Shown: positions 2,834-15,329, numbered from the stretch's first letter. The stretch: DNA of 32,000 nucleotides from Nitrosomonas sp. Nm132 (GCF_900100485.1 NZ_FNDH01000001.1:41681-73680), one strand, 5' to 3'. The notes: a model not told the origin generated them from the sequence alone. Numbers and translations: made by a program.

Positions 2834-5800
2834 GCTTGAAAACGAATTTGAGTTACTGACCCATCTAAGCGAACTGGCGGGTATCTTGCCAGCCTACACC
2901 GATAACTGGCAGCAGCAGCACCTCACCTCCCCTACCACCCAGCGCATGCTGCTGGCTGCCATGGGGTTCGATGTGTCCACACCGGAAAAAATCGCTGCCG
3001 CCATTAAGGAGCGCGAGTTGCATCCCTGGCGGCGAGCGCTGGAAGCGGTGTCAGTGGTTCGAGAGCAGGCAGCTTGGGTACGGCTGGTCACACAGGACAC
3101 TTCCGCTGATGAAGAGTGGGAATGGCGTCTGGATCTGGAAGACGGTGGCAACCTGAGTGGCCAGTTTCAACCGCAAACCCTGCCGCAAATTGGAGCCAGG
3201 AAAATCAATGGTATAGTGCATACTGCCTGGCAGCTCGCGATGCCCGGACGCCTTGCGCCGGGCTATCATCGCCTGACACTATCGCGTGCCGGTAAGCCCT
3301 GTGCAGAGCAGACCTTCATCGTTGTCCCCGCTACCTGTTATCAGCCTGAAGCCATCACTCATTCCGGCCGCATCTGGGGGCCAGCCGTGCAACTGTACGC
3401 AGTGCGGTCCGAGCGTAATTGGGGAATGGGCGACTTTACCGATCTGCGGCTATTGCTGGAGCAATGGGCAGCACAGGGCGCGGATATCATCGGCGTCAAC
3501 CCGATGCACGCCTTGTTTCCGCATAATCCGGAACACGCGAGTCCGTACAGTCCTTCCAGCCGCTTATTTTTCAATATCCTTTATCTCGATGTGGAGGCCA
3601 TCGACGATTTTTACGAATGCGATGCGGCGCGCGCCATATTACGCACGCCCGAGTTTCAGATCCGGCTGGAAGGATTACGGGCGACCGAGATGGTCGATTA
3701 CGCGGGTGTCGCCGCGCTCAAGCTGCCCATGCTGGAAATGCTGTACCGCCATTTCTGTGAGCGGCACCTGGCAGCGGATAGCGAGCGTGCCGCTGTATTT
3801 CGCGCCTTTCAGACGCGTGAGGGTGAACGGCTGTACCGCCATACTCTATTCGAGGCACTACAAGAGTATTTCCATAATCAGGATCCCAATGCATGGGGTT
3901 GGCCGGTCTGGCCAAAGGCCTACCGCCATCCTGAAGCAGCAGAAGTACATGAATTTGAGGCCCAACATCGAGATCGCGTCGAATTTTTTGCTTACCTGCA
4001 ATGGCAGGCTGACTTACAGCTTGCTGCCGTGGGATGGCGCTCACTGGAATTGGGACTCGGTGCAGGTCTCTATCTCGATCTGTCGGTCTCGGTCGATGGC
4101 GGCGGTGCAGAAGCTTGGGCCAATCAGGCGCTTTATGCCATTGGTGTGGGAGTAGGCGCGCCACCAGAGCTCGGCAACCAGCTCGGCCAGGACTGGGGGT
4201 TGCCGCCATTCGTACCGGATCGCCTGCGTGAGGCAGCCTATGCGCCTTTCATTGCCACGCTGCGGCATAATATGCGACACGCAGGCGCATTGCGTCTCGA
4301 TCATGTCATGGGATTGATGCGTCAATACTGGGTGCCTGCTGGCGTATCACCTACTGAAGGCGCTTATGTGCGTTACCCTTTCGAGGATCTGCTCGGGATT
4401 CTGGCGCTGGAAAGCCAGCGTAACCAGTGCCTGGTTATCGGCGAAGATCTGGGAACCGTGCCGGAGGAAGTACAGGCTGCCTTACCGCCCTTAGGCATCC
4501 TCTCGTATCGTTTGCTGATAATGGAAAAAGAAGCAACGGGCAGCTTCACTGCGCCAGAGAACTATTCCGCCCAAGCGCTTGCGGCAGTGACCACGCATGA
4601 TTTACCGACGCTGCCAGGCTACTGGCAAGGACACGATATCATCCAGCGTACGGCGCTCCGACTATTCAGCTCCGATGAGGCTCGCCGGACTCAGGTGGTC
4701 ATGCGCTCCCAGGAACGCGCTTATCTCTTGCTGATGCTGGAGCAGACCGGATTGTTGCCGGAAGGGCTGACGGTTGATCCAGTGTCACTGCCAGTCGCCA
4801 CACCGGAATTGATCCAGGCGGTCTATAGCTATCTGGCCCGCAGCCCAGCTCGGGTCCTGATGGTGCAAATCGAGGATATACTGGATGTACTGGATCAAGT
4901 CAATATTCCCTCCACCACCACGCAGCATCCCAATTGGCGACGTAAGCTCCCTATCAATCTCGAAGCCTGTGCGGCTGACCGCCGGGTACTCGCGCTGGCT
5001 GCAGCCATGCGGCAAGAGCGTCCTCGCACCCGTACTGCGCCCGTGCTGAAACGGCGCTTACGCATTCCCCTTGCCACTTACCGCTTGCAGCTCAACCGTA
5101 ACTTCACCTTTGCGCAAGCAACGCAGCTGGTACCTTATCTGGCAGCACTGGGCATCAGCCATGCCTATTGCTCGAGTTACCTCAAGGCGCGTCCCGGCAG
5201 CAGCCATGGCTACGATATCGTCGACCACAACGCGCTCAATCCGGAGATTGGCACCCAGGAAGAATTCGAAGCTTTTTGTACCACATTGCATGCGCATGGT
5301 ATGGGGCAAATCCTGGATCTGGTACCCAACCACATGGGCGTGATGAGCGCAGACAATCAATGGTGGCTAGATGTGCTGGAAAGTGGTCCCGCCTCGGTTT
5401 ATGCGCCTTTTTTTGATATCGACTGGCAGCCTCTCAAAGAAGGGTTGCGTGGCAAGGTGCTGTTACCCATCCTGGGACGATCCTATGGCGACACCTTGGA
5501 AGATGGCGAATTAAAACTCAACTTTGACGAGGCGTGCGGGAGCTTCAGTGTATGGTATTACCAGCACCGCCTGCCCATCGCCCCACGCGAATATCCCCGC
5601 CTGTTGCGGCATCGCCTATCCCTGCTGGAAGCGCAACTGCGGCCGGATGACCCGGATTTGCAGGGACTCGCCAGTCTGATTACGGCGTTTGATCATCTGC
5701 CGCCACAGGAGGCGACCACGCCCGATAAGGTCCTGGAGCGGCACCGCGACCAGGAGTTGCTCAAACGGCGCCTCGCGGCATTGGCTGGTATTTCCCCGTC

Positions 5801-7946
5801 CATCAGACAGACCGTGCTGGATACGGTCAACGACTACAACGGTAGTCCTGGCGATCCCGGTTCTTTTGCTTTGCTGCATGAGCTGCTTGAAGCTCAGCCC
5901 TGGCGCGTGGCTAACTGGCGCGTGGCTTCCGATGAAATCAATTACCGCCGCTTTTTTGACATCAATGATCTCGCTGCCCTGCGCGTGGAAGACAATCATG
6001 TCTTTGAAGCTACCCATCAGCTGGTACTGAAATGGGTTGCCGAGGGTAAAGTGGATGGCTTGCGCATTGACCATCCGGATGGGTTATATGATCCCACGCA
6101 GTATTTTCAGCGGCTGCAGGAGCGCGTGGCGATGCGCTCCCCTTCAATGGAAGGAGAAAAAGCCATTTATATCGTGGCAGAAAAAATCCTCGCCAGCCAT
6201 GAACCATTACGCGAGGATTGGGCCATCCATGGCACTACCGGCTATGACTTTTGCAATCTGGTCAATAGTCTGTTCGTTGATCTCCACGCGAGAACAACGC
6301 TGGAGCGCACCTATCGCTCGTTTACTCACGCCCGGCCCGATTTTGAAGAACTCGTTTACCGCAGCAAGCACCAGATCATGAAATATAGCATGGCCAGCGA
6401 ACTGAACGTCATGGCGGGACAATTAAGCCGAATTTGCGAATTGCGGCCGCATACGCGTGACTTTACCACCAGTAACCTGCGTCATGCCCTTGCCGAAGTA
6501 ATCGCTCGGCTGCCTGTCTACCGTACTTACGTGCGCGACAGCCAGGTTTCTGTACTTGATCGCCGCTATGTAGAATGGGCTGTGGCTCAGTCCAAGAAAT
6601 TCACCCAGGTGCTGGATATCAGCATTTTCGATTTTCTTGGCTCTGTGCTCCTGCTGGACGCCGCGGCCGATAGAGACCCGCCCTATGCCGCCGCGATTAC
6701 TGCATTTGCCATGAAGTTCCAGCAGCTTTCCGGCCCGGTGATGGCCAAAGGCTACGAAGATACCGCGTTCTATCTGTACCATCGCCTGATTTCCCTGGAC
6801 GAGGTAGGCGGCGACCCTCGCCTCTTCGGCATTTCGGTAAAAGCCTTCCATGCCGAGAATGCCAAGCGGCTGGAACGCTGGCCTTATTCCATGCTCAATA
6901 CCTCCACGCATGACAGCAAACGCAGCGAAGACGTGCGTGCGCGCATCAATGTATTGTCTGAAATGCCCAGTCATTGGCATCAGCAGGCGTTGCGTTGGCG
7001 ACGGCTCAACCGAAGCAAGAAATTGCTGCTTGATCGCGAGGAAATCCCCAGCGCCAATGACGAATACCTGATTTACCAAACCTTGATTGGCATCTGGCCG
7101 TTCACGGAGCTGATTGCAGAAGAGCATGAAGCCTTGCTGGCACGCATTGAGGCGTATCTGCTCAAAGCAGTGCGCGAAGCCAAACAGCACACCAGTTGGA
7201 TCAATCCGCGCATGTCCTATGAAGAGGGTCTATCAAGCTTTATCAGGAAGATACTGAATCTATCTGACAAAAACACTTTCCTGGCCGACTTCCTTCCTTT
7301 CCAGCAGCGTGTGGCCTACTGGGGAATGTTCAGCTCGCTCTCACAGACCTTGCTCAAATTGACCGTGCCCGGCGTGCCGGACATCTACCAGGGCAACGAG
7401 CTATGGGATTTCAGCCTGGTGGACCCGGACAACCGCCGCCCGGTGAACTACGCTCAGCGCCAGCAGTTGCTGAAGGAACTGGAAGCATCTGTAGCCGTTC
7501 CTCAAGATGCGCTGGCCAAGCAAGTCCGGCAACTGCTCGATGACATGACGGATGGACGCGCCAAGCTGTATTTGACGTGGCGCTTGCTGCATAGCCGCAA
7601 GCGATGGCCCAATGTTTTCCAGGACGGCGCCTACCTGCCGCTCATGACGGCAGGATCACGGAAAGATCATCTGTGCGCCTTCGCCCGCCAGGCAGACGAG
7701 ATTACTCTGGTAATTGTCGCACCACGCTGGTTTTCACGGCTGATACCCGCAGCGTCAGGTCAACTGCCTTTGGGCAACACCGTGTGGGGCACCACAACGG
7801 TTGAAGTGCCTAATCTTGCTGCAGGAATGCGGGGGGTGAATGTACTGACAGGGGAAATCGTGGAAGTAACTCAAACAAATGACATCCCTACGCTGGCCGC
7901 TGCAACGCTATTCATTTCATTTCCGGTCGCTTTACTGCAATTCTGA
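2826..7946 (+). CDS. malQ-treY: fused 4-alpha-glucanotransferase (GH77, residues ~1-735) / malto-oligosyltrehalose synthase (GH13, residues ~748-1706)
   Basis: Single uninterrupted 1706-aa ORF. The N-half has MalQ-type motifs (WGMGDFTDL, GVNPMHALFP, SPYSPSSRLF, LRLDHVMGL, IGEDLGTVP, THDLPTL, HPNWRRKL). From ~nt 5061 it reads LATYRLQLNRNFTF...GISHAYCSSYLKARPGSSHGYDIVDH...LDLVPNHMGV...GLRIDHPDGL...TSTHDSKRSEDVRARI, typical of TreY. There is an 8-bp overlap with the treZ stop. Confidence 0.85.
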   Translation: MSKLENEFELLTHLSELAGILPAYTDNWQQQHLTSPTTQRMLLAAMGFDVSTPEKIAAAIKERELHPWRRALEAVSVVREQAAWVRLVTQDTSADEEWEWRLDLEDGGNLSGQFQPQTLPQIGARKINGIVHTAWQLAMPGRLAPGYHRLTLSRAGKPCAEQTFIVVPATCYQPEAITHSGRIWGPAVQLYAVRSERNWGMGDFTDLRLLLEQWAAQGADIIGVNPMHALFPHNPEHASPYSPSSRLFFNILYLDVEAIDDFYECDAARAILRTPEFQIRLEGLRATEMVDYAGVAALKLPMLEMLYRHFCERHLAADSERAAVFRAFQTREGERLYRHTLFEALQEYFHNQDPNAWGWPVWPKAYRHPEAAEVHEFEAQHRDRVEFFAYLQWQADLQLAAVGWRSLELGLGAGLYLDLSVSVDGGGAEAWANQALYAIGVGVGAPPELGNQLGQDWGLPPFVPDRLREAAYAPFIATLRHNMRHAGALRLDHVMGLMRQYWVPAGVSPTEGAYVRYPFEDLLGILALESQRNQCLVIGEDLGTVPEEVQAALPPLGILSYRLLIMEKEATGSFTAPENYSAQALAAVTTHDLPTLPGYWQGHDIIQRTALRLFSSDEARRTQVVMRSQERAYLLLMLEQTGLLPEGLTVDPVSLPVATPELIQAVYSYLARSPARVLMVQIEDILDVLDQVNIPSTTTQHPNWRRKLPINLEACAADRRVLALAAAMRQERPRTRTAPVLKRRLRIPLATYRLQLNRNFTFAQATQLVPYLAALGISHAYCSSYLKARPGSSHGYDIVDHNALNPEIGTQEEFEAFCTTLHAHGMGQILDLVPNHMGVMSADNQWWLDVLESGPASVYAPFFDIDWQPLKEGLRGKVLLPILGRSYGDTLEDGELKLNFDEACGSFSVWYYQHRLPIAPREYPRLLRHRLSLLEAQLRPDDPDLQGLASLITAFDHLPPQEATTPDKVLERHRDQELLKRRLAALAGISPSIRQTVLDTVNDYNGSPGDPGSFALLHELLEAQPWRVANWRVASDEINYRRFFDINDLAALRVEDNHVFEATHQLVLKWVAEGKVDGLRIDHPDGLYDPTQYFQRLQERVAMRSPSMEGEKAIYIVAEKILASHEPLREDWAIHGTTGYDFCNLVNSLFVDLHARTTLERTYRSFTHARPDFEELVYRSKHQIMKYSMASELNVMAGQLSRICELRPHTRDFTTSNLRHALAEVIARLPVYRTYVRDSQVSVLDRRYVEWAVAQSKKFTQVLDISIFDFLGSVLLLDAAADRDPPYAAAITAFAMKFQQLSGPVMAKGYEDTAFYLYHRLISLDEVGGDPRLFGISVKAFHAENAKRLERWPYSMLNTSTHDSKRSEDVRARINVLSEMPSHWHQQALRWRRLNRSKKLLLDREEIPSANDEYLIYQTLIGIWPFTELIAEEHEALLARIEAYLLKAVREAKQHTSWINPRMSYEEGLSSFIRKILNLSDKNTFLADFLPFQQRVAYWGMFSSLSQTLLKLTVPGVPDIYQGNELWDFSLVDPDNRRPVNYAQRQQLLKELEASVAVPQDALAKQVRQLLDDMTDGRAKLYLTWRLLHSRKRWPNVFQDGAYLPLMTAGSRKDHLCAFARQADEITLVIVAPRWFSRLIPAASGQLPLGNTVWGTTTVEVPNLAAGMRGVNVLTGEIVEVTQTNDIPTLAAATLFISFPVALLQF

Positions 7947-7993
7947 CCTTAAAGAAATTGAGTTCTGGATGGGTCATTATTCCGGGAAGAGGG

Positions 7994-8065
7994 GTCGCGA
8001 ATCAAGAAAAATAAGAACGGTCACTGAGGTTATTGTTCACCCGAATAAGAATTCATGATTCTGGT
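7994..8065 (+). repeat. ~70-bp intergenic direct repeat, copy A
   Basis: gtcgcgaatcaagaaaaataa...ggttattgttcacc.gaataagaattcatgat.ct.gt recurs at 9468-9536 in the same orientation. The match is roughly 85% by eye with a 3-bp indel. Contains a small AATAAC/GTTATT hairpin. Confidence 0.8.
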
Positions 8066-8138
8066 ATCTGACCCTTTCTGTGCTGCCATTCAAACCCGAT
8101 GTATCGCTCTTTGGGTTAATATCTTGTGACAACACTAT

Positions 8139-9275
8139 CTAGAATCTATATGTGTAACGCAAAAAAGAATCGAGATCCTGACGTTTTTGTAATGAGCTCG
8201 TATGCTGTCGGATATCCTCGCTATAGCGCATGCGGACTTCGATGGTTTGGTTTTTATCGATAACCCATTTATAGCGTACCTCGGCCACATAGGCATTATC
8301 ATTAAAGGATGGCGTCAGCAGCCAGCCATCCCCGATACGAGCGAGCGCAAATCCAAGACTATGCTGTGGAACGATATCGATAAAATTGAAAGTGACTTGG
8401 GCCGCGAGTCCATCGGCATTACCCGACGCGCCCGTTCTTATTGTGCTGCGTTTTGGCACATTCGGCGCGTACCCTAATTCCCCCCCAAGCATGAAATTTA
8501 GGCTGCCTCTTATTGGCCACTGCGCTGCCAAACGTCCGACCACGGCCCAGTAATCGGTGACGATACCAGAGCCTACCCCTTCGCTGTGCAGAGCACTCGG
8601 CAACCAGTTAATATCCACCGTACGCTGAACAATTGGGCCGGCTTTCTGGGTATTTTCAACGCTTGCAAAATAAGACACCCGGCTGCCATCTTCGCTGAAA
8701 TCAAGAGGCGCACTGCGCGGCTGTGTTGCACCTTGAGCATAATTGTACTGGGCAATCGCCGTCGTGTTCCAGCCATTCTCAGCCTTGTATTTGATTTGCA
8801 CGCCATCAGTCCAGGTGATATTGGTGAATGCGCTGTCTTCACGATCCAGTGATTTTTCGGCTACCCCTTTCAGTAGGGCTTTACTCTGGAAGCGGCCTAC
8901 GAGAATTTCCCAGACATCGGCGGGGCGGTATTCAACATAAATCTCGTCGAAAGTGGAATCACCCTGACGTAACCCATCCTGTGTAGGGATGTTGTCAAAA
9001 ATCTTGAAGTGCAAATTGCTGTCACGGGTGGAATAACGTCCTGCGAAACGTACCTGCATCCGCCATTGCTCATTAAATTTCGCACCAATCCCGACGCGAG
9101 GGCGAAATCGAAGTTCGTGGGTTGATTCTTCTTTACTATTGCGGTCATCGCGCTCGCGCGAGAAAAAACTAGCACGCACATCACCATTAAGTGAAAATTC
9201 CACAGCGGAAGCTGGAGTAATCGAATGCAGGCATACTCCACAGAGCATGAGAGTCGTCCATTTCCTAAATAACAC
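8139..9275 (-). CDS. outer-membrane beta-barrel (porin-like) protein
   Basis: 378-aa ORF with signal peptide MLFRKWTTLMLCGVCLHSITPASA|VEF. Alternating amphipathic strands throughout. C-terminal YTYRF (terminal Phe) is typical of OMP beta-barrels. No specific family assigned. Confidence 0.6.
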   Translation of the reverse strand: MLFRKWTTLMLCGVCLHSITPASAVEFSLNGDVRASFFSRERDDRNSKEESTHELRFRPRVGIGAKFNEQWRMQVRFAGRYSTRDSNLHFKIFDNIPTQDGLRQGDSTFDEIYVEYRPADVWEILVGRFQSKALLKGVAEKSLDREDSAFTNITWTDGVQIKYKAENGWNTTAIAQYNYAQGATQPRSAPLDFSEDGSRVSYFASVENTQKAGPIVQRTVDINWLPSALHSEGVGSGIVTDYWAVVGRLAAQWPIRGSLNFMLGGELGYAPNVPKRSTIRTGASGNADGLAAQVTFNFIDIVPQHSLGFALARIGDGWLLTPSFNDNAYVAEVRYKWVIDKNQTIEVRMRYSEDIRQHTSSLQKRQDLDSFLRYTYRF

Positions 9276-9467
9276 AGAATAACTTCTAAAACCATAATAA
9301 GTTATAAAAAATTCTGTTGGCCTCCCAATGCTGCTCTTGCCAACGATCTTTCAGCCCGAAGCTTACCGTTCACTAATCACAGAATCTTCTTGAGAATAGC
9401 AGATTAAGGCTTCCTCTGTAGTGTCCTGACTGCTTCAGAGGTGGTTAGCGCACGAAAGGGATCAAGT

Positions 9468-9536
9468 GTCGCGAATCAAGAAAAATAACGGCAACTGGGG
9501 TTATTGTTCACCAGAATAAGAATTCATGATCCTAGT
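9468..9536 (+). repeat. ~70-bp intergenic direct repeat, copy B
   Basis: Same-orientation copy of 7994-8065. It lies between the OMP start and the TIR gene stop. Confidence 0.8.
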
Positions 9537-9563
9537 CCAGGTTATGGTCTTAATCATAACAAT

Positions 9564-10640
9564 CTACTGCCTTTGCCCGCTATACGCCACTTCACCATTC
9601 GGGTTGTAGTCTAAACGTGGCGGGTTCTTTTCCAGCTCTAGCAACAGCAGCGTTGTACTGCCACCTACACTTTGGATCGTATTACCTACCCTCGTAAGAT
9701 CTATTTCAACAGTGCCCAATCTCTCATAATCTGAGGTGATCCTGACTTTTCGTTTGTTCACCTTGGCAATCGTCACGGTCACATCGGATCTCGAGCTGCC
9801 TTTCGAATCGGAGATGACATCGCCATAATAAATGCCCGCAACCAGATCAGCCAATTCAACCGGCTTTCTCGCCTCCCTGGAAATGGGCTGTTGAGTTAAG
9901 GGCTGCTCTCTAGCTGCCGGAAGTTTTGGCCCGAGTTCGGAGGAAGAGGAACTCGAACCAGGTATCGGCTTGGACGGTCCGTCGGCAGTAGGTGCAGGCG
10001 GTTCTCCTGTCTCAGCTATTAGCGTCGGCGACGATTGAGAGAGACTACGGTTTGTGGTTGGTGAATAGTCGAACAGAAGTGAAGAAAAAAGGACAACCAC
10101 AGCGAGTCCACCTGCTAGCCAGTAGAGCATAGATTTACGAGTGCGAAGATCCTGCTTACCACTTGATGTATTCGATTCACCAAGTGCCTTGCTAACAGCC
10201 TCCAGCAGTCTCTCCATGTCCGATTTGAAGCGGCTGTTGCTCACCTCAAGAGCGTTCCGCCGCGCAAGCGCGCGAAGAGGTTCCGGCAATGCCTCTTCGG
10301 CTGGCATGCTCGCTCCATCAAGTAGCACGGGGATCACGCGAATGTTTCGCGATAGTGCAGCAGCGATCTCAAGACGCACGAAGTCTTTCGGGTCGTTGAT
10401 GCGTAGACCTGCGCCCGCTTGCTGTTCCATCCAGCGCCTGCCGATCATCGCCAGAAGAATCTCACATTGGCCCACAGCGCGCTCGATGGCTTCATCAAAC
10501 GGGAAACCCGGCTCGATCGCATCCACATCCATAAAAATTCGCTCCCTGGAAAAATGCTGAACGAGCTGGTCGTAGATAGCGCGCGCGTAGCCTGCCGAGT
10601 CATCCCGGCGATAGCTAATAAAGATATGTCCGTTGCTCAT
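9564..10640 (-). CDS. TIR domain protein with one transmembrane helix and a C-terminal extracytoplasmic domain
   Basis: The N-terminus HIFISYRRDDSAGYARAIYDQL...IFMDVDAIEPGFPFDEAIERAV..CEILLAMIG..W......DFVRLEIAAAL..N.RVIPVLL fits the bacterial TIR_2 pattern. TM helix MLYWLAGGLAVVVLFSSLLF, then a Pro/Ser-rich linker and a ~100-aa beta-rich tail. ATG at 10640 is preferred over the listed GTG at 10658. Confidence 0.8.
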   Translation of the reverse strand: MSNGHIFISYRRDDSAGYARAIYDQLVQHFSRERIFMDVDAIEPGFPFDEAIERAVGQCEILLAMIGRRWMEQQAGAGLRINDPKDFVRLEIAAALSRNIRVIPVLLDGASMPAEEALPEPLRALARRNALEVSNSRFKSDMERLLEAVSKALGESNTSSGKQDLRTRKSMLYWLAGGLAVVVLFSSLLFDYSPTTNRSLSQSSPTLIAETGEPPAPTADGPSKPIPGSSSSSSELGPKLPAAREQPLTQQPISREARKPVELADLVAGIYYGDVISDSKGSSRSDVTVTIAKVNKRKVRITSDYERLGTVEIDLTRVGNTIQSVGGSTTLLLLELEKNPPRLDYNPNGEVAYSGQRQ

Positions 10641-10695
10641 CGATGTTCCATCCCACACCCTTATGCTTCCTGAATGCCATGATCTTGCTCGGTAT

Positions 10696-10755
10696 ACCTA
10701 ACGCTGGAGTTAAGCCGCCGCGCGTAGCGCGGTCGGCTTGAACGACTTGTTATGT
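10696..10755 (-). other. attC recombination site (cassette 2, 60 bp)
   Basis: Minus strand: ACATAAC AAGTC GTTCAAGCC GACCGCGCTACGCGCGGC GGCTTAAC TCCAGC GTTAGGT. R''=ACATAAC overlaps the ORF stop. L''/L' pair with one unpaired C. The central stem is GC-rich. R'=GTTAGGT fits GTTRRRY exactly. Confidence 0.85.
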
Positions 10756-11295
10756 GTTTGTTGCCCGTTGAATCAACCTGGATAGTCGTAATTTAATTTT
10801 GAACTTTTGTTTATCTAGAACCCACTTAAAAAAGCTTTTTTCGCTTTCTATTGGTCCATCAAGTGTATACAAATTACAACTTGAACCGTAGTTGAGTTTA
10901 AATTGGTACTTTCGGTATTTGGAAAAGTAGTACGTTGCCCCCACCGGACCTTTTGCTAAAAACTCTCTTGCCTCATGGGGTTTCAAAGCAAGATCATTGC
11001 CCATAATCTGCATGCTTACCTTTAACGGCAATCCATCTCTTGTTAGAGATACCACAGTAACAACCCCATCAAGAGAAGTTATCTTAGATCCTACATTGGT
11101 ACATTTAAACTTAAGTTCAGCACCAAAATTATTATCTGGATCATATGTTTGCTTAACCAGCACCGTATGTAGTCTTACTCTGGAAGTCCATTTTTCATAC
11201 CAGAAATAAATTCCACCCGTGCCTCCAATAAGATACAGAATCTTTAAAGGGTCATTAAAAAAATAGTCAATGACTTTGTAAATTAATTCTGTCAC
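10750..11295 (-). CDS. integron cassette ORF, hypothetical membrane-anchored protein (181 aa)
   Basis: GTG start preceded by GAGGAG. N-terminal hydrophobic helix LKILYLIGGTGGIYFWY, then a beta-rich domain. AT-rich. Bounded by attC sites on both sides. No family recognised. Confidence 0.6.
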   Translation of the reverse strand: MTELIYKVIDYFFNDPLKILYLIGGTGGIYFWYEKWTSRVRLHTVLVKQTYDPDNNFGAELKFKCTNVGSKITSLDGVVTVVSLTRDGLPLKVSMQIMGNDLALKPHEAREFLAKGPVGATYYFSKYRKYQFKLNYGSSCNLYTLDGPIESEKSFFKWVLDKQKFKIKLRLSRLIQRATNT

Positions 11296-11310
11296 TCAGA
11301 CTCCTCAAAC

Positions 11311-11373
11311 ACATAACGTTTTGGGTAACAGGCGCAACGACAGGAGCGTCCTAGTTGACCCAATTGTTATAAC
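11311..11373 (-). other. attC recombination site (cassette 1, 63 bp)
   Basis: Minus strand: GTTATAAC AA TTGGGTCAAC TAGGACGCTCCTGTCGTTGCGCCT GTTACCCAA AAC GTTATGT. ATAAC/GTTAT and TTGGGT(C)AAC/GTTACCCAA pair with an unpaired C, and the central stem has bulges. It starts directly after the ORF stop TAG. Confidence 0.75.
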
Positions 11374-12786
11374 CTACATTGGTAATTTCCAATCTGAAGC
11401 GTACTTTCTATACTCTGGCGCTTCTGTTTTTGGTGGCACATAGTGCTCATCATCTATTACAAAATTAGCAGCCATTAGGTCTCTCACTCCACCCAATCTC
11501 TCTGTTGAGGTGAGCTCTGATGCGATATCTTTGAAAAGTGTTGAGAAATTACCAGATTGATTATTGGCAATGAAATCAGGCAAAGGGATTTTGAAATCGA
11601 ATTCTGGAAATTGCGGAAGGCCTTTTAATGCTGCAACTGAATTATATACTTTCATTAAAAAGCTTCCCTGAATCCCTTGATCAGTTTTAAGGCCATATTT
11701 TGATCTTAATTCATGTTCTGCTTTCTTGAGCTGCTTCTCCCATTTTTGGATTGATTTATTAGCCTGTGTAATTCCACCCTCATCAAACCCAATTCGTATT
11801 TCCCTTAGAAGCCCTCTTACATCCTGCAAGCATTGCTCGTTTTTTATTTCAAGAGCCGAAGATATTATGTTTCGAGCATCACCGGACTGAACTGATAACC
11901 AAGCAGAAAATATTGGAATATCTAGTGAAACAGCTGTAGATCTTCCAGCGTCAATAATTTCACCTACCGAAGTTAATAGCTTATTCGATAAAGAACCTAC
12001 TAATTTTGCCGTAAAATCGTGACCAAATGCGCCCGTCTTTTTAAACCAATGAATTTGATAAGCATGTCTAATAGGATGAAGAAAAGTATCAGCTTTTAAA
12101 TAATTGGCTGCTAAGCTGTAATAAATCGACTTATAAGCAAGCCAATTTAGTGATGCGATAAACATATCCAGGGCACGAGTTGTACCACCATGACCTCGCC
12201 TAGCTGATTTTGCTTCTTCAGCCATTCTCTCTTTCGTGAGTTCTGTTCCATCTGAACCAATAAGTTTAATATCTGTTGACCAAACACCGAATGTATCGCC
12301 AGCATCCGAAAGTTCATTGTAGATAGCTGAACTCAGTTCGCTGTATTTTTCATACTCCAGTGTATTTGGTTGACCAAGCATTTTCAAGGTTAAATAATAA
12401 ACGCTCGAACGCAAATCCCAAGTACAAATCATATTTAGCTTAAGTAATCCAAGTAATTCCCGGAAATCTAGGTCCACAAATTCACCTGCGCGAATTTCGG
12501 GCCGGATTAATTTTGCTTCTGATTTTGCTTTTTCTGAAAAATTGTCTAACTGATAGTCTTCTGGTGATATGAACTTTATAAAATCGAATTCTTTTTTTCT
12601 TTCTTCCTTCTGCTCTTCTTTGTAATTATCAATGCAAACAAGCTCGTCATAAAAAAGGATCGCTTGAACGAAGTTTTCTAACGCTACAAGATCACCGTTT
12701 ATAGTATCGGGGTTTTTAACGACAATCTGACCCATGACCCTTTGCACAGCTGTAAGTGAGGCATTGTCAATCAGTGCATATGTCAT
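11374..12786 (-). CDS. integron cassette ORF, hypothetical protein (470 aa)
   Basis: Long AT-rich ORF with an AGGAAA RBS-like element 6-7 nt upstream of the ATG. It lies between the attI region and attC 1. No motif I can assign to a family. Confidence 0.65.
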   Translation of the reverse strand: MTYALIDNASLTAVQRVMGQIVVKNPDTINGDLVALENFVQAILFYDELVCIDNYKEEQKEERKKEFDFIKFISPEDYQLDNFSEKAKSEAKLIRPEIRAGEFVDLDFRELLGLLKLNMICTWDLRSSVYYLTLKMLGQPNTLEYEKYSELSSAIYNELSDAGDTFGVWSTDIKLIGSDGTELTKERMAEEAKSARRGHGGTTRALDMFIASLNWLAYKSIYYSLAANYLKADTFLHPIRHAYQIHWFKKTGAFGHDFTAKLVGSLSNKLLTSVGEIIDAGRSTAVSLDIPIFSAWLSVQSGDARNIISSALEIKNEQCLQDVRGLLREIRIGFDEGGITQANKSIQKWEKQLKKAEHELRSKYGLKTDQGIQGSFLMKVYNSVAALKGLPQFPEFDFKIPLPDFIANNQSGNFSTLFKDIASELTSTERLGGVRDLMAANFVIDDEHYVPPKTEAPEYRKYASDWKLPM

Positions 12787-12813
12787 CGGTGTTTCCTGTG
12801 GTTATAACTAGAA

Positions 12814-12876
12814 TTAGAACTCCGAAATGACGCAATACATCACGTCAAAAATGACATCTAACACGGCAAGCTGCAT
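12814..12876 (-). CDS. candidate 20-codon leader ORF in the attI region (MQLAVLDVIFDVMYCVISEF)
   Basis: Minus strand AGAAGGAGATAGC-ATG, a strong SD with 5-nt spacing. The ORF reads through the GTTAGAT core candidate and stops 27 nt before the cassette-1 ATG. Too short for the ORF track. Confidence 0.3.
   Translation of the reverse strand: MQLAVLDVIFDVMYCVISEF
12856..12862 (-). other. candidate attI/cassette crossover core (GTTAGAT)
   Basis: This is the only perfect GTTRRRY heptamer on the cassette strand between intI and cassette 1. A second, class-1-like context CTAACAAAG|TTTGTTA lies nearer intI (~12925-12941), so the assignment is uncertain. Confidence 0.3.
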
Positions 12877-12949
12877 GCTATCTCCTTCTGTTTTATAGAA
12901 TTACGCCGAATGAGCTTTCATCATAACAAACTTTGTTAGATCCACAAAT

Positions 12950-13273
12950 ATGACGAACAAGTCCCGGCTTTTGGACCAGATGCGGGATAAACTCAGGCTC
13001 AAGCATTACAGCTATCGCACGGAGCAATCTGATATTGCCTGGATAAAACGTTTCATTTTCTTTTACAACAAGCAGCACCCCGATACGATGGGAGAAAGGG
13101 AAGTTGAATCGTTTCTGATTTATCTCGCAGTTAAACGAAATATTGCTGCATCCACACAGAATCAGGCGCTGTGCGCGCTGCTATTTTATATAAGGAGGTA
13201 TCAGGCTGTGAATACACACAAAGTCTTGCATTGTCACCCAACAGACAAAGCCTATCCCCACTCTATTGCTTGA
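12950..13273 (+). pseudogene. intI: integron integrase remnant (N-terminal ~80 codons only)
   Basis: LLDQMRDKLRLKHYSYRTEQSDIAWIKRFIFFYNKQHPDTMGEREVESFLIYLAVKRNIAASTQNQALCALLF matches the IntI N-terminal SAM-like domain pattern. After ~nt 13200 the reading frame is unrelated, and no catalytic domain appears in any frame before amoC. Confidence 0.75.
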
Positions 13274-13321
13274 AGATTCTTCCGTCTTTGCCTGGACATT
13301 ATTTGGCTGCCCCTTTGTAAA

Positions 13322-13356
13322 CAAAAAACCCATCCCCTTATTAAAAGAGGATGGGT
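13322..13356 (-). terminator. rho-independent terminator of amoC
   Basis: Minus strand ACCCATCC-TCTTTTAATAAG-GGGATGGGT followed by TTTTTTGTTT, about 28 nt downstream of the amoC stop. Confidence 0.7.
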
Positions 13357-13383
13357 AGATGCAATACTCGTTACAACCTGGAT

Positions 13384-14205
13384 TTAAACAACATCATCCA
13401 GAATCGCTCGGCTTTGTTCGTTCCATTGCACATCCAGGAGGTTGGAAAAGCGTGCAATGACCTGGATGACAACGCCCCCAGAGAACAAAGCGGCCCATGC
13501 CAGTATCACGAAGCCCCAATGTAGCGGTGCGCTAAAGAGTTCCTCCATGAACCAGAAGGCATGGCCCCATTCATTCAAACCAACGTTCGGGAGGCTCATC
13601 AGCGGACCGGCAATAGACATCACCAAAGGAAACGAGGTTCCCTTGTTGTACAGTGGCAATCGCGTCCTTGCATATAGGAAAGTTGATACGCCTATGATGA
13701 TGTACATCGGGAACGAGCCGTAAAATAGCGGAATGTGGCTGGGCGTGAAACTGGTGTCGCGAATGATCACCTGATGCCAGGAAGCATCCTGTTCAGTGAA
13801 GAAACTCGAACCCCAATAGACAGCAAACATGTACACCCCTAACCACATCATGAAATAAAAATACCGCTTAATTTCCATTTTCACCGGCAGGTTCGCCAGT
13901 TGTTCCTGGGTATCGCGTGTTTTCCATACCCAACCCCAGACCGTCAGCGCCAAGATCGGCCAGAGTGTCATTTGGAAACGCCATAGGCCCATCCAGATTT
14001 GATCGAACTCCGGTTCCATGGAGTCCATCCCATGGGAGTAGGCGTAGGTCCGCTGAAACCAGACCCAGAAAATTGCTATTCCCAGTATGGGTAGAAGACC
14101 CAGCTTGTAAAACCTGGAATCATACCATTCCGACATGTCATAGGCAGGACTGCCTGCCTTCGCTGCTTTATCTACCGATCTGTTTCCAAGTGCAGGAATA
14201 CTCAT
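13384..14205 (-). CDS. amoC: ammonia monooxygenase subunit C, singleton copy (amoC3-like; no amoA/amoB downstream)
   Basis: The 273-aa translation is near-colinear with Nitrosomonas AmoC as I recall it ([82 protein letters not shown]). GAGGAG RBS. A terminator follows rather than amoAB. Confidence 0.95.
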
Positions 14206-14572
14206 TTAAATTAGCTCCTCTTTTGCAAATAATCCAAAATTCCAAAAGGAATTCAAAAACTAAGAACAAAAACAACAGCCCCGGCCCGACCAAAAATTTT
14301 CCAGAAATGAAAAATCTTTGGAAGTACCGGTTTCAAAGCATCCATGGCCTCTTTCCTCCTCTTCAAGTTATGATTCCACCATTAAAGGCACTTCAATGCC
14401 TTGTCGTGAGACCTTACCTTGGCTTCATGACCATCCAGCGCTACAGCCCAATGGCCACTACGCTAGCATCTACATGCTCTAGGGATCAAAACAGTATCGT
14501 TGTCAATAACGCTATTGCCCTATCTAAAAATATCAAATGATAATTTGTGAAATTTTTGTGAAGTAATATAAA

Positions 14573-14601
14573 TACAGACTTTTTTTTATCAATTAAGTTC
14601 C
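14573..14601 (-). promoter_or_regulatory. candidate ECF sigma-E-type promoter upstream of amoC
   Basis: Minus strand GGAACTT-N16-TCTGTA resembles the GGAACTT-N16-TCTGA/TCAAA sigma-E consensus. It lies ~370 nt upstream of the amoC ATG and overlaps the palindrome TTCCTTcAAGGAA. Confidence 0.35.
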
Positions 14602-15329
14602 TTCAAGGAATTTTTCCTAATATTGCGAAAGGAATTAACTTAATCAACTCGAAAAGGGAGGCACGAAATGACGGCATTAGGAGAGCGATTCCAAACTGCT
14701 CGTGAGCTTGGCCGCCCGGTCCCAGAACCCCGAGTCGCTTGATGTATGCCTAACCAGCTCATCAATCGGATGACGGATAATATGGGAAGAGAACACCGTT
14801 TTACTTGTAGACAGAGAAAGCTCACCGCGAGTATTCCGTCATGAATTGGAATCAGGGTTGGCGAATGAGATTCGACATGCAATGAATGACACAACGTGCT
14901 GGACAATGAACGTTCCACGGCACAGGTATCGGCGATTCATGGGAGACGAACAGTTAGCGGCAAGTCTGGACGATCGCGCAAAATTGTAGAACCAGAATCC
15001 AGCAATCTGTTTCTTACATCACCGATAACTGTGGCCTGTTCCTATTCTGCGCTGTTCTACCAATCGGATTACTTCTGAATTAGAAGGTGTTTTTCCAATT
15101 TATCGATATCGCCCGTGATTGTTTAATAATCTTAACACCTACACCTTGCACACCTTTAAATGTGCCGTGAAAGCCAAGGCTATTCTCAGCAGCAGGATAT
15201 ATTGAATTACATATCCATATTCTATAACAGCCATCGATTACATTCTTATTTGGATAAGAGAGTATGGTCTTTTTGATCAGTTGCGCGGCAAGCCTCGCCC
15301 TTCAGGACGGGGAAGCGCTGATTCTTTTC

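Follow-up and report, generated by a model that had tools for sequence, protein, structure and literature searches.

We analyzed a 32,000-nucleotide stretch of the genome of Nitrosomonas sp. Nm132 (GCF_900100485.1, NZ_FNDH01000001.1:41681-73680), called here the window, from an assembly of 3.2 Mb with a G+C content of 46.6%. The subject is a gene on the minus strand, the TIR gene, whose product of 358 residues carries an N-terminal TIR domain, one predicted transmembrane (TM) helix, a low-complexity linker and a C-terminal beta-barrel. The gene lies next to two integron cassettes and a stump of the integrase gene intI in a variable island (Table 1). The original prediction had described a TIR domain, a single TM helix, a Pro/Ser-rich linker and, at the C-terminus, a domain of roughly 100 residues. 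The Pfam match, the hydropathy profile, the AlphaFold2 (AF2) models and the pattern of conservation all agreed with this layout.

Table 1. Features of the TIR gene and its surroundings (window coordinates unless a contig is named)
Feature	Coordinates	Strand	Evidence or remark
TIR gene (358 residues and stop)	9564-10640	-	open reading frame and translation; TIR, TM helix, linker, periplasmic barrel (predicted)
SARM1-like TIR domain, predicted cytoplasmic, residues 6-146	10203-10625	-	Pfam TIR_2 (PF13676) and SARM1 matches
Glu91 codon	10368-10370	-	aligned with SARM1 catalytic E642 (HMMER alignment)
Single TM helix, residues 170-193, predicted N-in/C-out	10062-10133	-	Kyte-Doolittle 2.11; AF2 helix 167-190
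Pro/Ser-rich low-complexity linker, residues 194-254	9879-10061	-	variable in length, poorly conserved; AF2 pLDDT <50
Eight-stranded beta-barrel, predicted periplasmic, residues 255-358, unclassified family	9567-9878	-	conservation, AF2
Strain-conserved 1.25-kb unit (leader, gene, 114 nt of 3' flank)	9450-10700	-	blastn
attC2 (cassette 2)	10696-10755	-	attC scan and DNA fold, z -3.4
attC1	11311-11372	-	attC scan and DNA fold, z -2.5
Truncated integron integrase	12950-13273	+	TIGR02249 partial; N-terminal 77 of 315 model positions
REP/MITE-like palindromic repeat, ~80 nt, at the expected attC site	9462-9541	.	direct repeat D1; second copy 7994-8065
Variable island (7.4 kb) that holds the porin gene, the TIR gene, both cassettes, the intI stump and an orphan amoC	7943-15324	.	
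PLDc_2 / TIR-TM-barrel / GITGHQ-motif trio	L096:1-2092, L098:2-2339		

The open reading frame (ORF) analysis placed the start of the gene at the ATG at 10640 and its stop, TAG, at 9564-9566. We preferred this ATG to the upstream GTG at 10658 because the consensus N-terminus across the protein family begins MSNGHIFISYRR. Orthologs 95% identical to the gene were intact in three related assemblies, thus the frame is open in four. With two related assemblies taken for comparison, the ratio of nonsynonymous to synonymous differences per site (pN/pS) was 0.13-0.15 for the TIR domain, 0.19-0.21 for the barrel and 0.8-0.9 for the linker. Judged by these ratios, purifying selection acts on the TIR domain and on the barrel and not on the linker.

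Both results speak against the idea that the gene is a silent relic, stranded behind a dead integron and neither expressed nor used. The idea does draw on the truncation of the integrase, on the lack of a full integron integrase anywhere in the assembly and on our failure to find a convincing promoter between attC2 and the gene start. Still, with the frame intact in four assemblies and pN/pS of 0.13-0.21 in both folded domains, we consider it very improbable. In the explanation that we favor, the TIR gene would encode a functional single-pass inner-membrane protein.

The TIR domain matched Pfam TIR_2 with an E-value of 7.6e-13 and 49.5 bits (the cut-off is 28) over model positions 1-122. When all PDB sequences were searched with a profile of 41 family members, only SARM1 and the Caenorhabditis elegans protein TIR-1 were matched (E 3e-10). 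The full-length AF2 model, computed from 7 sequences, was poor, with a predicted local distance difference test score (pLDDT) of 55. Therefore, only its TIR part (pLDDT 70-86) was used for a Foldseek search, in which the top 23 matches were TIR domains of SARM1 or TIR-1, with TM-scores of 0.73-0.81 for SARM1. The model and these matches support a flavodoxin-like TIR fold. In a direct comparison the SARM1 TIR domain was 29% identical to that of the studied protein over 145 residues, and against SARM1 the family members scored about 55 bits, compared to about 30 bits for a second bacterial TIR lineage.

We found that F7, Y10, R11, R12, D38, G45 and E91 aligned with F565, Y568, R569, R570, D594, G601 and E642 of SARM1, and that all seven are invariant in 116 relatives (41 + 75 family members). 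The conserved glutamate that the original prediction had pointed out is thus the counterpart of the SARM1 catalytic residue E642 in the alignment. The position of SARM1 W638 is occupied by Phe. From this alignment the domain is likely an enzyme of the SARM1 kind that cleaves nicotinamide adenine dinucleotide (NAD+). SARM1 is the best, and the only significant, PDB family for the protein, and the FISYRR motif, D594, G601 and E642 all fall on invariant residues. The two proteins differ in build. SARM1 forms a soluble octamer of ARM-SAM-TIR chains under the control of nicotinamide mononucleotide and NAD+ (PDB 6O0Q is among its structures), while the protein studied here has neither ARM nor SAM, is predicted to be membrane-tethered with a periplasmic domain, and carries Phe for W638 and Asn for H685. 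The SARM1 TIR domain was reported to fall in a mainly bacterial clade (PMC13142454); an earlier survey reported no bacterial homologs of SARM1 (PMC7075850).

A hydrophobic segment is present at the position of the TM helix in most homologs, and directly N-terminal of the helix stands the basic stretch RTRK. By the positive-inside rule, RTRK on this side of the helix places the N-terminus, with the TIR domain, in the cytoplasm. The same topology had been proposed in the original prediction, and hydropathy, the RTRK stretch and the barrel homologs that carry signal peptides bear it out. A TIR domain inside and a C-terminal domain in the periplasm are therefore supported as the predicted arrangement.

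These barrel homologs came from a phmmer search with residues 255-358 against 1.84 billion representatives, which found the barrel in 154 representative clusters; 149 of them could be classified. Roughly half of the classified clusters (76 of 149) are proteins of about 100-260 residues whose N-terminus carries a signal peptide, a lipobox or an anchor. In another 22 of the 149, a different TIR lineage (M.DVFISYASEDR...WSVWWDR; among P0129-P0263), 22-30% identical to the TIR domain of the studied protein, is fused to the barrel via a TM helix. The small exported or anchored proteins and the TIR-TM fusions together imply that the barrel works outside the cytoplasm, and the second lineage indicates that it was joined to a membrane-tethered TIR domain at least twice. 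A caspase-like protein with a signal peptide (P0173) contains the barrel as well. The 127-residue genes upstream in two contigs (L097 and L099) were considered as secreted copies of the barrel and rejected on comparison.

Pfam had no match to the barrel beyond noise at E <= 1, and the PDB had no sequence match. Its AF2 model, made from an alignment of 89 sequences, was confident (pLDDT 90.8, predicted TM-score 0.81) and shows a short helix and then eight strands. Structure prediction of the C-terminal domain with a Foldseek search, proposed in the original prediction, was thus successful in its first half; the search returned weak calycin-like matches only (E >= 0.017, TM-score ~0.5), namely designed barrels, Brucella U-Omp19, the lipoprotein YedD and fatty-acid- or retinol-binding proteins. 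The modeled fold suggests binding of a ligand or of a protein. By its sequence and predicted location, the barrel is a new family of periplasmic domains.

The barrel is one of many C-terminal domains found behind this type of TIR domain. More than 4,358 homologs of the full protein were found at E <= 0.001, and hundreds of proteins share with it 60-77% identity in the TIR-TM region and the same layout: an N-terminal IFISYRR-type TIR domain, a TM helix near residues 170-230 and a variable, predicted extracytoplasmic C-terminus. Over the best 120 homologs, the TIR-TM regions were 69% identical at the median, the sequences that follow the helix fell into 19-20 unrelated clusters, and the barrel was present in just six other proteins. 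Relatives are encoded by at least 563 loci in species-representative genomes of Proteobacteria, Acidobacteriota, Chloroflexota, Verrucomicrobiota, Nitrospira and other phyla, and about 65 of 80 relatives from species genomes showed a hydrophobic helix after the TIR domain. Given these numbers, the membrane-spanning layout is not unusual, contrary to the original prediction.

The C-termini of 75 relatives included PASTA domains (12), HYDIN/VesB-like Ig domains (8) and FGE-sulfatase domains (7); ASH, PG_binding_1, SH3_3 and Sel1 domains were found as well. Since PASTA, PG_binding_1 and SH3_3 are known cell-wall binders, they give independent support to the topology with the C-terminus outside; the FGE-sulfatase and Ig-like domains at this place are extracytoplasmic modules too. 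In a tree of the TIR domains, the ectodomain types were mostly clade-specific, and ectodomain swaps were seen between near-identical TIR domains (for example, P0021 compared to P0012 and P0016, and P0019 compared to P0023). We read the family as a conserved TIR-TM chassis joined to interchangeable, presumed extracytoplasmic binding domains. No published description of a TIR-TM-ectodomain family was found in the literature.

We turn to the DNA around the gene. In G041, the nearest relative that has the flanking genes, the site between treY-malQ and the ortholog of orf15264 spans 178 bp, compared to 7,382 bp in the window. The porin gene, the TIR gene, the cassettes, the intI stump and amoC therefore make up a variable island, and its horizontal acquisition is a further part of the explanation that we favor. 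Orthologs 95% identical to the TIR gene were present in 2 of the 24 other genomes of the genus that were searched. Comparative genomics, suggested in the original prediction as a check, thus placed the gene outside the core genome.

Within the island, the intI stump abuts the orphan amoC. Ahead of the TIR gene stand two cassettes, both AT-rich and with good attC sites. The G+C content of the cassettes is 37-40%, compared to 53-58% for the TIR gene. The R' core of attC2, GTTAGGT, forms the 5' boundary of the unit that contains the TIR gene, and this unit has the same orientation as the array. Read from these remains, the integron is dead or decayed, with the TIR gene as its distal unit.

In a blastn comparison with L001, a contig of a sister strain, and with G024, 96% identity extended over exactly the 1.25-kb unit, with differing DNA on both sides. 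Upstream of the TIR gene, L001 has a different cassette with a truncated attC, and its homology to the window starts at the R' core. In this attC (L001:290-350), the L' arm and a part of R' are gone (GGCGCGTCC|CTTATAGGT), and the junction between attC and the TIR gene in L001 is probably frozen too. Downstream of the unit, a porin-like gene of 378 residues follows in the window and a bestrophin-like gene in L001 (also in G024:C2). These alternative segments, which extend from the TIR unit to treY-malQ (window 7965-9449, L001:1596-3057), have junctions without an attC core.

A separate observation concerns an N. communis metagenome-assembled genome (G018). Its contig with the island (C117, L014) is 97.8% identical to the window, whereas its treY/orf15264 locus (C69, L101) is 78-84% identical and holds a different insert of 1.56 kb, made of a short-chain dehydrogenase gene and an ORF of 131 residues. 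This difference points either to a recent transfer of the island or to a mis-binned contig.

The original prediction left a choice between the first backbone gene and a cassette without its attC. The first option fell, since the whole 7.4-kb segment is missing from G041. The second, a former cassette that lost its attC, we consider fairly probable: the 5' edge of the unit lies at the G|TT crossover of attC2, L001 has another cassette upstream, and relatives are found with attC in other arrays. Close relatives, with 70-77% identity in the TIR domain, are attC cassettes. For example, P0018 (L115) is followed by a perfect attC in an array of at least four attC sites, which also includes RVT, CAP12-PCTIR_TIR and HicB-like genes, and the stop codon of P0017 (L116) is overlapped by a perfect attC of 58 nt. 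Decayed copies of the L116-type attC were found in L118, L120 and L121, and a perfect attC in L131, which encodes a more distant relative.

Close relatives also ride on IS-rich (insertion sequence) regions. Two further loci, L209 and L210, have the GTTAGG core and a similar leader upstream of the gene without an attC; L211, which lies in a Tn3-type element, has no attC either. The shared 5' leader (…GTGGA..ACCGATG) follows the GTTAGG core at 4870-5003 in both L209 and L210 and at 10640-10700 in the window, and together they look like a fossil cassette boundary. We conclude from these comparisons that the TIR-TM subfamily appears linked to integron cassettes. An association of the whole family with integrons was considered and rejected, as the 79 genome loci and 65 metagenome loci were at background except for L131. 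In L118 (3982-6001; the same in L119), two TIR_2 genes of 273 and 345 residues stand in tandem among small unrelated genes of the same strand; the run looks like a cassette array, in which the sole attC detected was a decayed one.

What the TIR unit lacks as a cassette is its own 3' attC. The attC scan, a search for R'' and R' combined with folding, recovered attC1 and attC2 and found nothing downstream of the TIR gene. The 131 nt at 9470-9600, with the stop codon and the spacer, folded no better than shuffled sequences (z -0.9), in agreement with the original remark that no convincing attC follows the gene. Two candidates, a 56-nt stretch CTACAAC...GTTATGA and the stretch GCTAAC...TTAATC at the point of divergence, were dropped by eye for poor complementarity of R'' and R'.

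The expected position of the attC is occupied by a palindromic repeat that resembles repetitive extragenic palindromic (REP) sequences or miniature inverted-repeat transposable elements (MITE). Two copies bracket the porin gene, and the direct repeat of 59-72 nt that they form (9478-9536 and 7994-8065) was considered as a hidden attC and rejected as a palindrome with copies on six contigs. At least 8 copies, with ends ...GGTCGCGAATCAAGAA / TTCTTGATTCGCGACC, are spread over these 6 contigs (other copies lie in C39, C69, C76, C84 and at C73:104.8 kb), so the repeat is a dispersed genomic element and not an attC.

The same facts can be read in another way. When a first cassette is inserted at attI, the DNA to the right of attI comes to begin exactly at the crossover. 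The TIR gene may never have been a cassette, then, if it lay in the DNA next to attI at the time the integron platform came in. Neither a downstream attC nor a convincing remnant of one was found; moreover, the G+C content of the gene departs from that of the two cassettes, and no attC was detected on the four contigs (L096-L099) retrieved for the five more distant proteins with the same barrel, all of which fits an attI-flank origin. Such an origin leaves aside that close relatives within the TIR-TM subfamily are genuine cassettes with attC, that the unit has the size of a cassette (1.25 kb) and the orientation of the array, and that the REP-like element sits exactly where the attC would be expected. 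We give it a lower, though considerable, probability. For loss of the attC from a former cassette there is a known parallel: in class 1 integrons, qacEdelta1 at the 3' conserved segment is a cassette that became fixed when its attC was lost. The TIR gene is likewise the last unit of its array, begins at the crossover of the preceding attC and has no attC of its own; the differences are that here the integrase is dead as well, that a REP-like repeat holds the place of the lost site and that the loss itself is inferred.

Our best explanation combines these parts. A functional single-pass protein, encoded in an acquired island with a dead integron, would act as a periplasm-sensing switch that clusters TIR domains to cleave NAD+; taken as a whole, we place this explanation just on the probable side. 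In the resting state, the membrane tether would hold the TIR domains apart. The periplasmic barrel would then bind a ligand, either a phage component or an envelope-derived molecule freed by damage, and binding would cluster the protein so that TIR-TIR interfaces could assemble. The Glu91 active site of the clustered domains would cleave NAD+, so that the infected cell stops growing or dies, as in abortive infection. The tether step is proposed by analogy with the Dictyostelium protein TirC, in which a TM tether restrains a TIR NADase and removal of the TM helix frees toxic filaments (PMC13142454). The defense step is proposed because compact anti-phage systems are frequent among integron cassettes (bioRxiv 10.1101/2024.07.02.601686), and a role in abortive-infection defense is, by this analogy, probable.

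Several observations weigh against this explanation. The topology was derived from hydropathy and homology. No recognizable ligand site was seen in the barrel, whose Foldseek matches are weak. At the position of SARM1 H685 the protein has Asn; close relatives carry N or H there, and wider relatives H, D or N. The PADLOC and NCBIfam models gave partial TIR-domain matches under the cut-offs, the ThsB models included. The window holds no defense island of a known system, the contigs L096-L099 have no attC as stated above, and the distant family members are for the most part ordinary genes of the chromosome. Finally, no published enzymatic, toxicity or phage results were found for any family member.

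Some of the same points lead to the main rival, a housekeeping envelope sensor in the manner of the PASTA kinases, in which the TIR domain would tune NAD+ or ADP-ribose for growth or dormancy. Many ectodomains of the family bind the cell wall (PASTA in 12 of 75, PG_binding_1, SH3_3), which mirrors the kinase-TM-PASTA receptors; the genes of the family mostly sit in the chromosome as ordinary genes, away from mobile elements, and no conserved effector partner accompanies them. A housekeeping role would sit poorly with the patchy distribution of the gene (2 of 24 genomes of the genus), with its place in an acquired island, with the close relatives on integron cassettes, in IS-rich regions and in a Tn3-type element, with the rapid turnover of ectodomains and with recurrent caspase, TPR-S and VWA conflict genes nearby. 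We regard this rival as unlikely.

The neighborhood of the family members bears on a second rival, a split system similar to Thoeris, in which clustering would yield a messenger of the cyclic ADP-ribose type for an effector encoded elsewhere. We clustered 623 neighboring ORFs from 79 family loci and found no conserved partner gene: no neighbor cluster occurred in more than 6 of the 79 loci. The recurrent neighbors were TPR-S proteins (6), caspase-like peptidases (3) and VWA_CoxE proteins (3), all of them components of known conflict systems. In two contigs with the same barrel (L096 and L098), a gene of the phospholipase D (PLD) family, PLDc_2, lies 26 nt upstream of the TIR gene, and a third gene, with the motif GITGHQ...SLAIG.DQ and SLOG-like by eye, overlaps its stop codon; this trio may be a Thoeris-like signaling version. 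The split system gains further from the TPR-S genes that adjoin 6 of the 79 relatives, from the single TPR-S protein (C115:110029) and five other TIR loci of the Nm132 genome, and from published Thoeris types, which pair TIR proteins with diverse effectors (bioRxiv 10.64898/2025.12.03.692087).

On the other hand, no such partner stands beside the TIR gene or most of its relatives, the PLD and SLOG-like proteins of L096 and L098 have no homologs in the Nm132 genome, and NAD+ depletion can suffice for killing by SARM1-like TIR domains. This makes the split system, in our view, more unlikely still than the envelope sensor. Membership in Thoeris itself was rejected, as the neighbors of the TIR gene are an unrelated cassette and the porin gene, without a ThsA-type effector. 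The lack of a conserved neighbor argues that no obligatory partner is needed, so within the NAD+-cleaving switch that we favor, direct depletion of NAD+ seems a more likely output than a messenger; a messenger role stays a live alternative.

We compared the protein with described systems of similar parts. It shares the conserved catalytic Glu and the patchy, mobile-element-linked distribution with bacterial TIR defense proteins (ThsB, TIR-STING, SpbK and E. coli TIR-I to TIR-IX; PMC11350192, PMC12847820), and by this likeness activation by oligomerization and abortive infection would be expected of it. Among these we found no described system that joins an N-in TIR domain by one TM helix to a binding domain outside the cytoplasm. 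From ThsB in particular it is set apart by partial sub-threshold model matches and the lack of a ThsA-like partner. The PASTA Ser/Thr kinases (PknB/PrkC) have a cytoplasmic enzyme, one TM helix and an extracytoplasmic sensor, and PASTA domains occur in 12 of the 75 family members; in the studied protein, however, the output domain is TIR and not a kinase, and the barrel is not PASTA. Toll-like receptors are single-pass proteins with the binding domain outside and the TIR domain inside, an analogy of layout only: here the TIR domain comes first in the chain, leucine-rich repeats are absent and the TIR domain is of the enzymatic SARM1 type rather than the scaffold type. The original prediction had called the protein a mirror image of Toll-like receptors; the protein is not itself a Toll-like receptor. 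TirC is likewise a TM-tethered TIR NADase whose tether restrains toxic filaments, and it differs in being eukaryotic, in having an N-terminal helix and no ectodomain, and in a TIR domain related to TIR-STING (PMC13142454).

What is new is the receptor-like, membrane-spanning form of a presumed TIR NADase, the barrel family and the link of the TIR-TM subfamily to integron cassettes; TIR NADases as such were already known. To our knowledge, almost all characterized bacterial TIR systems sense infection within the cytoplasm. If the explanation holds, a TIR enzyme wired through the membrane would detect danger at the envelope, either ahead of the entry of phage DNA or during it. With its many modular members and all compared SARM1 residues kept except for W638 and H685, the family could serve as a simple bacterial model for clustering-activated NADases of the SARM1 type. 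Even if the function is ordinary envelope signaling, the family would represent a kind of receptor output new for bacteria. More tentatively, and with a fair amount of doubt, one may see in it a vast class of single-pass immune receptors, arranged like Toll-like receptors with the chain reversed, whose swappable periplasmic sensors of phage or envelope breach would turn on a SARM1-type NADase through clustering; one subfamily would vary its sensors and travel in integron cassettes, and the lineage may be the bacterial source of the TIR domain of animal SARM1. In this way a small gene opens questions about the ligands of the sensors, about integrons as a reservoir of defense genes and about ectodomain swapping as an arms race.

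The other five TIR_2 loci of the Nm132 genome are located at C102:3028, C84:23110, C93:6334, C78:5337 and C28:80045. Two of them are broken by stop codons, and one lies within a frame of 1,360 residues.

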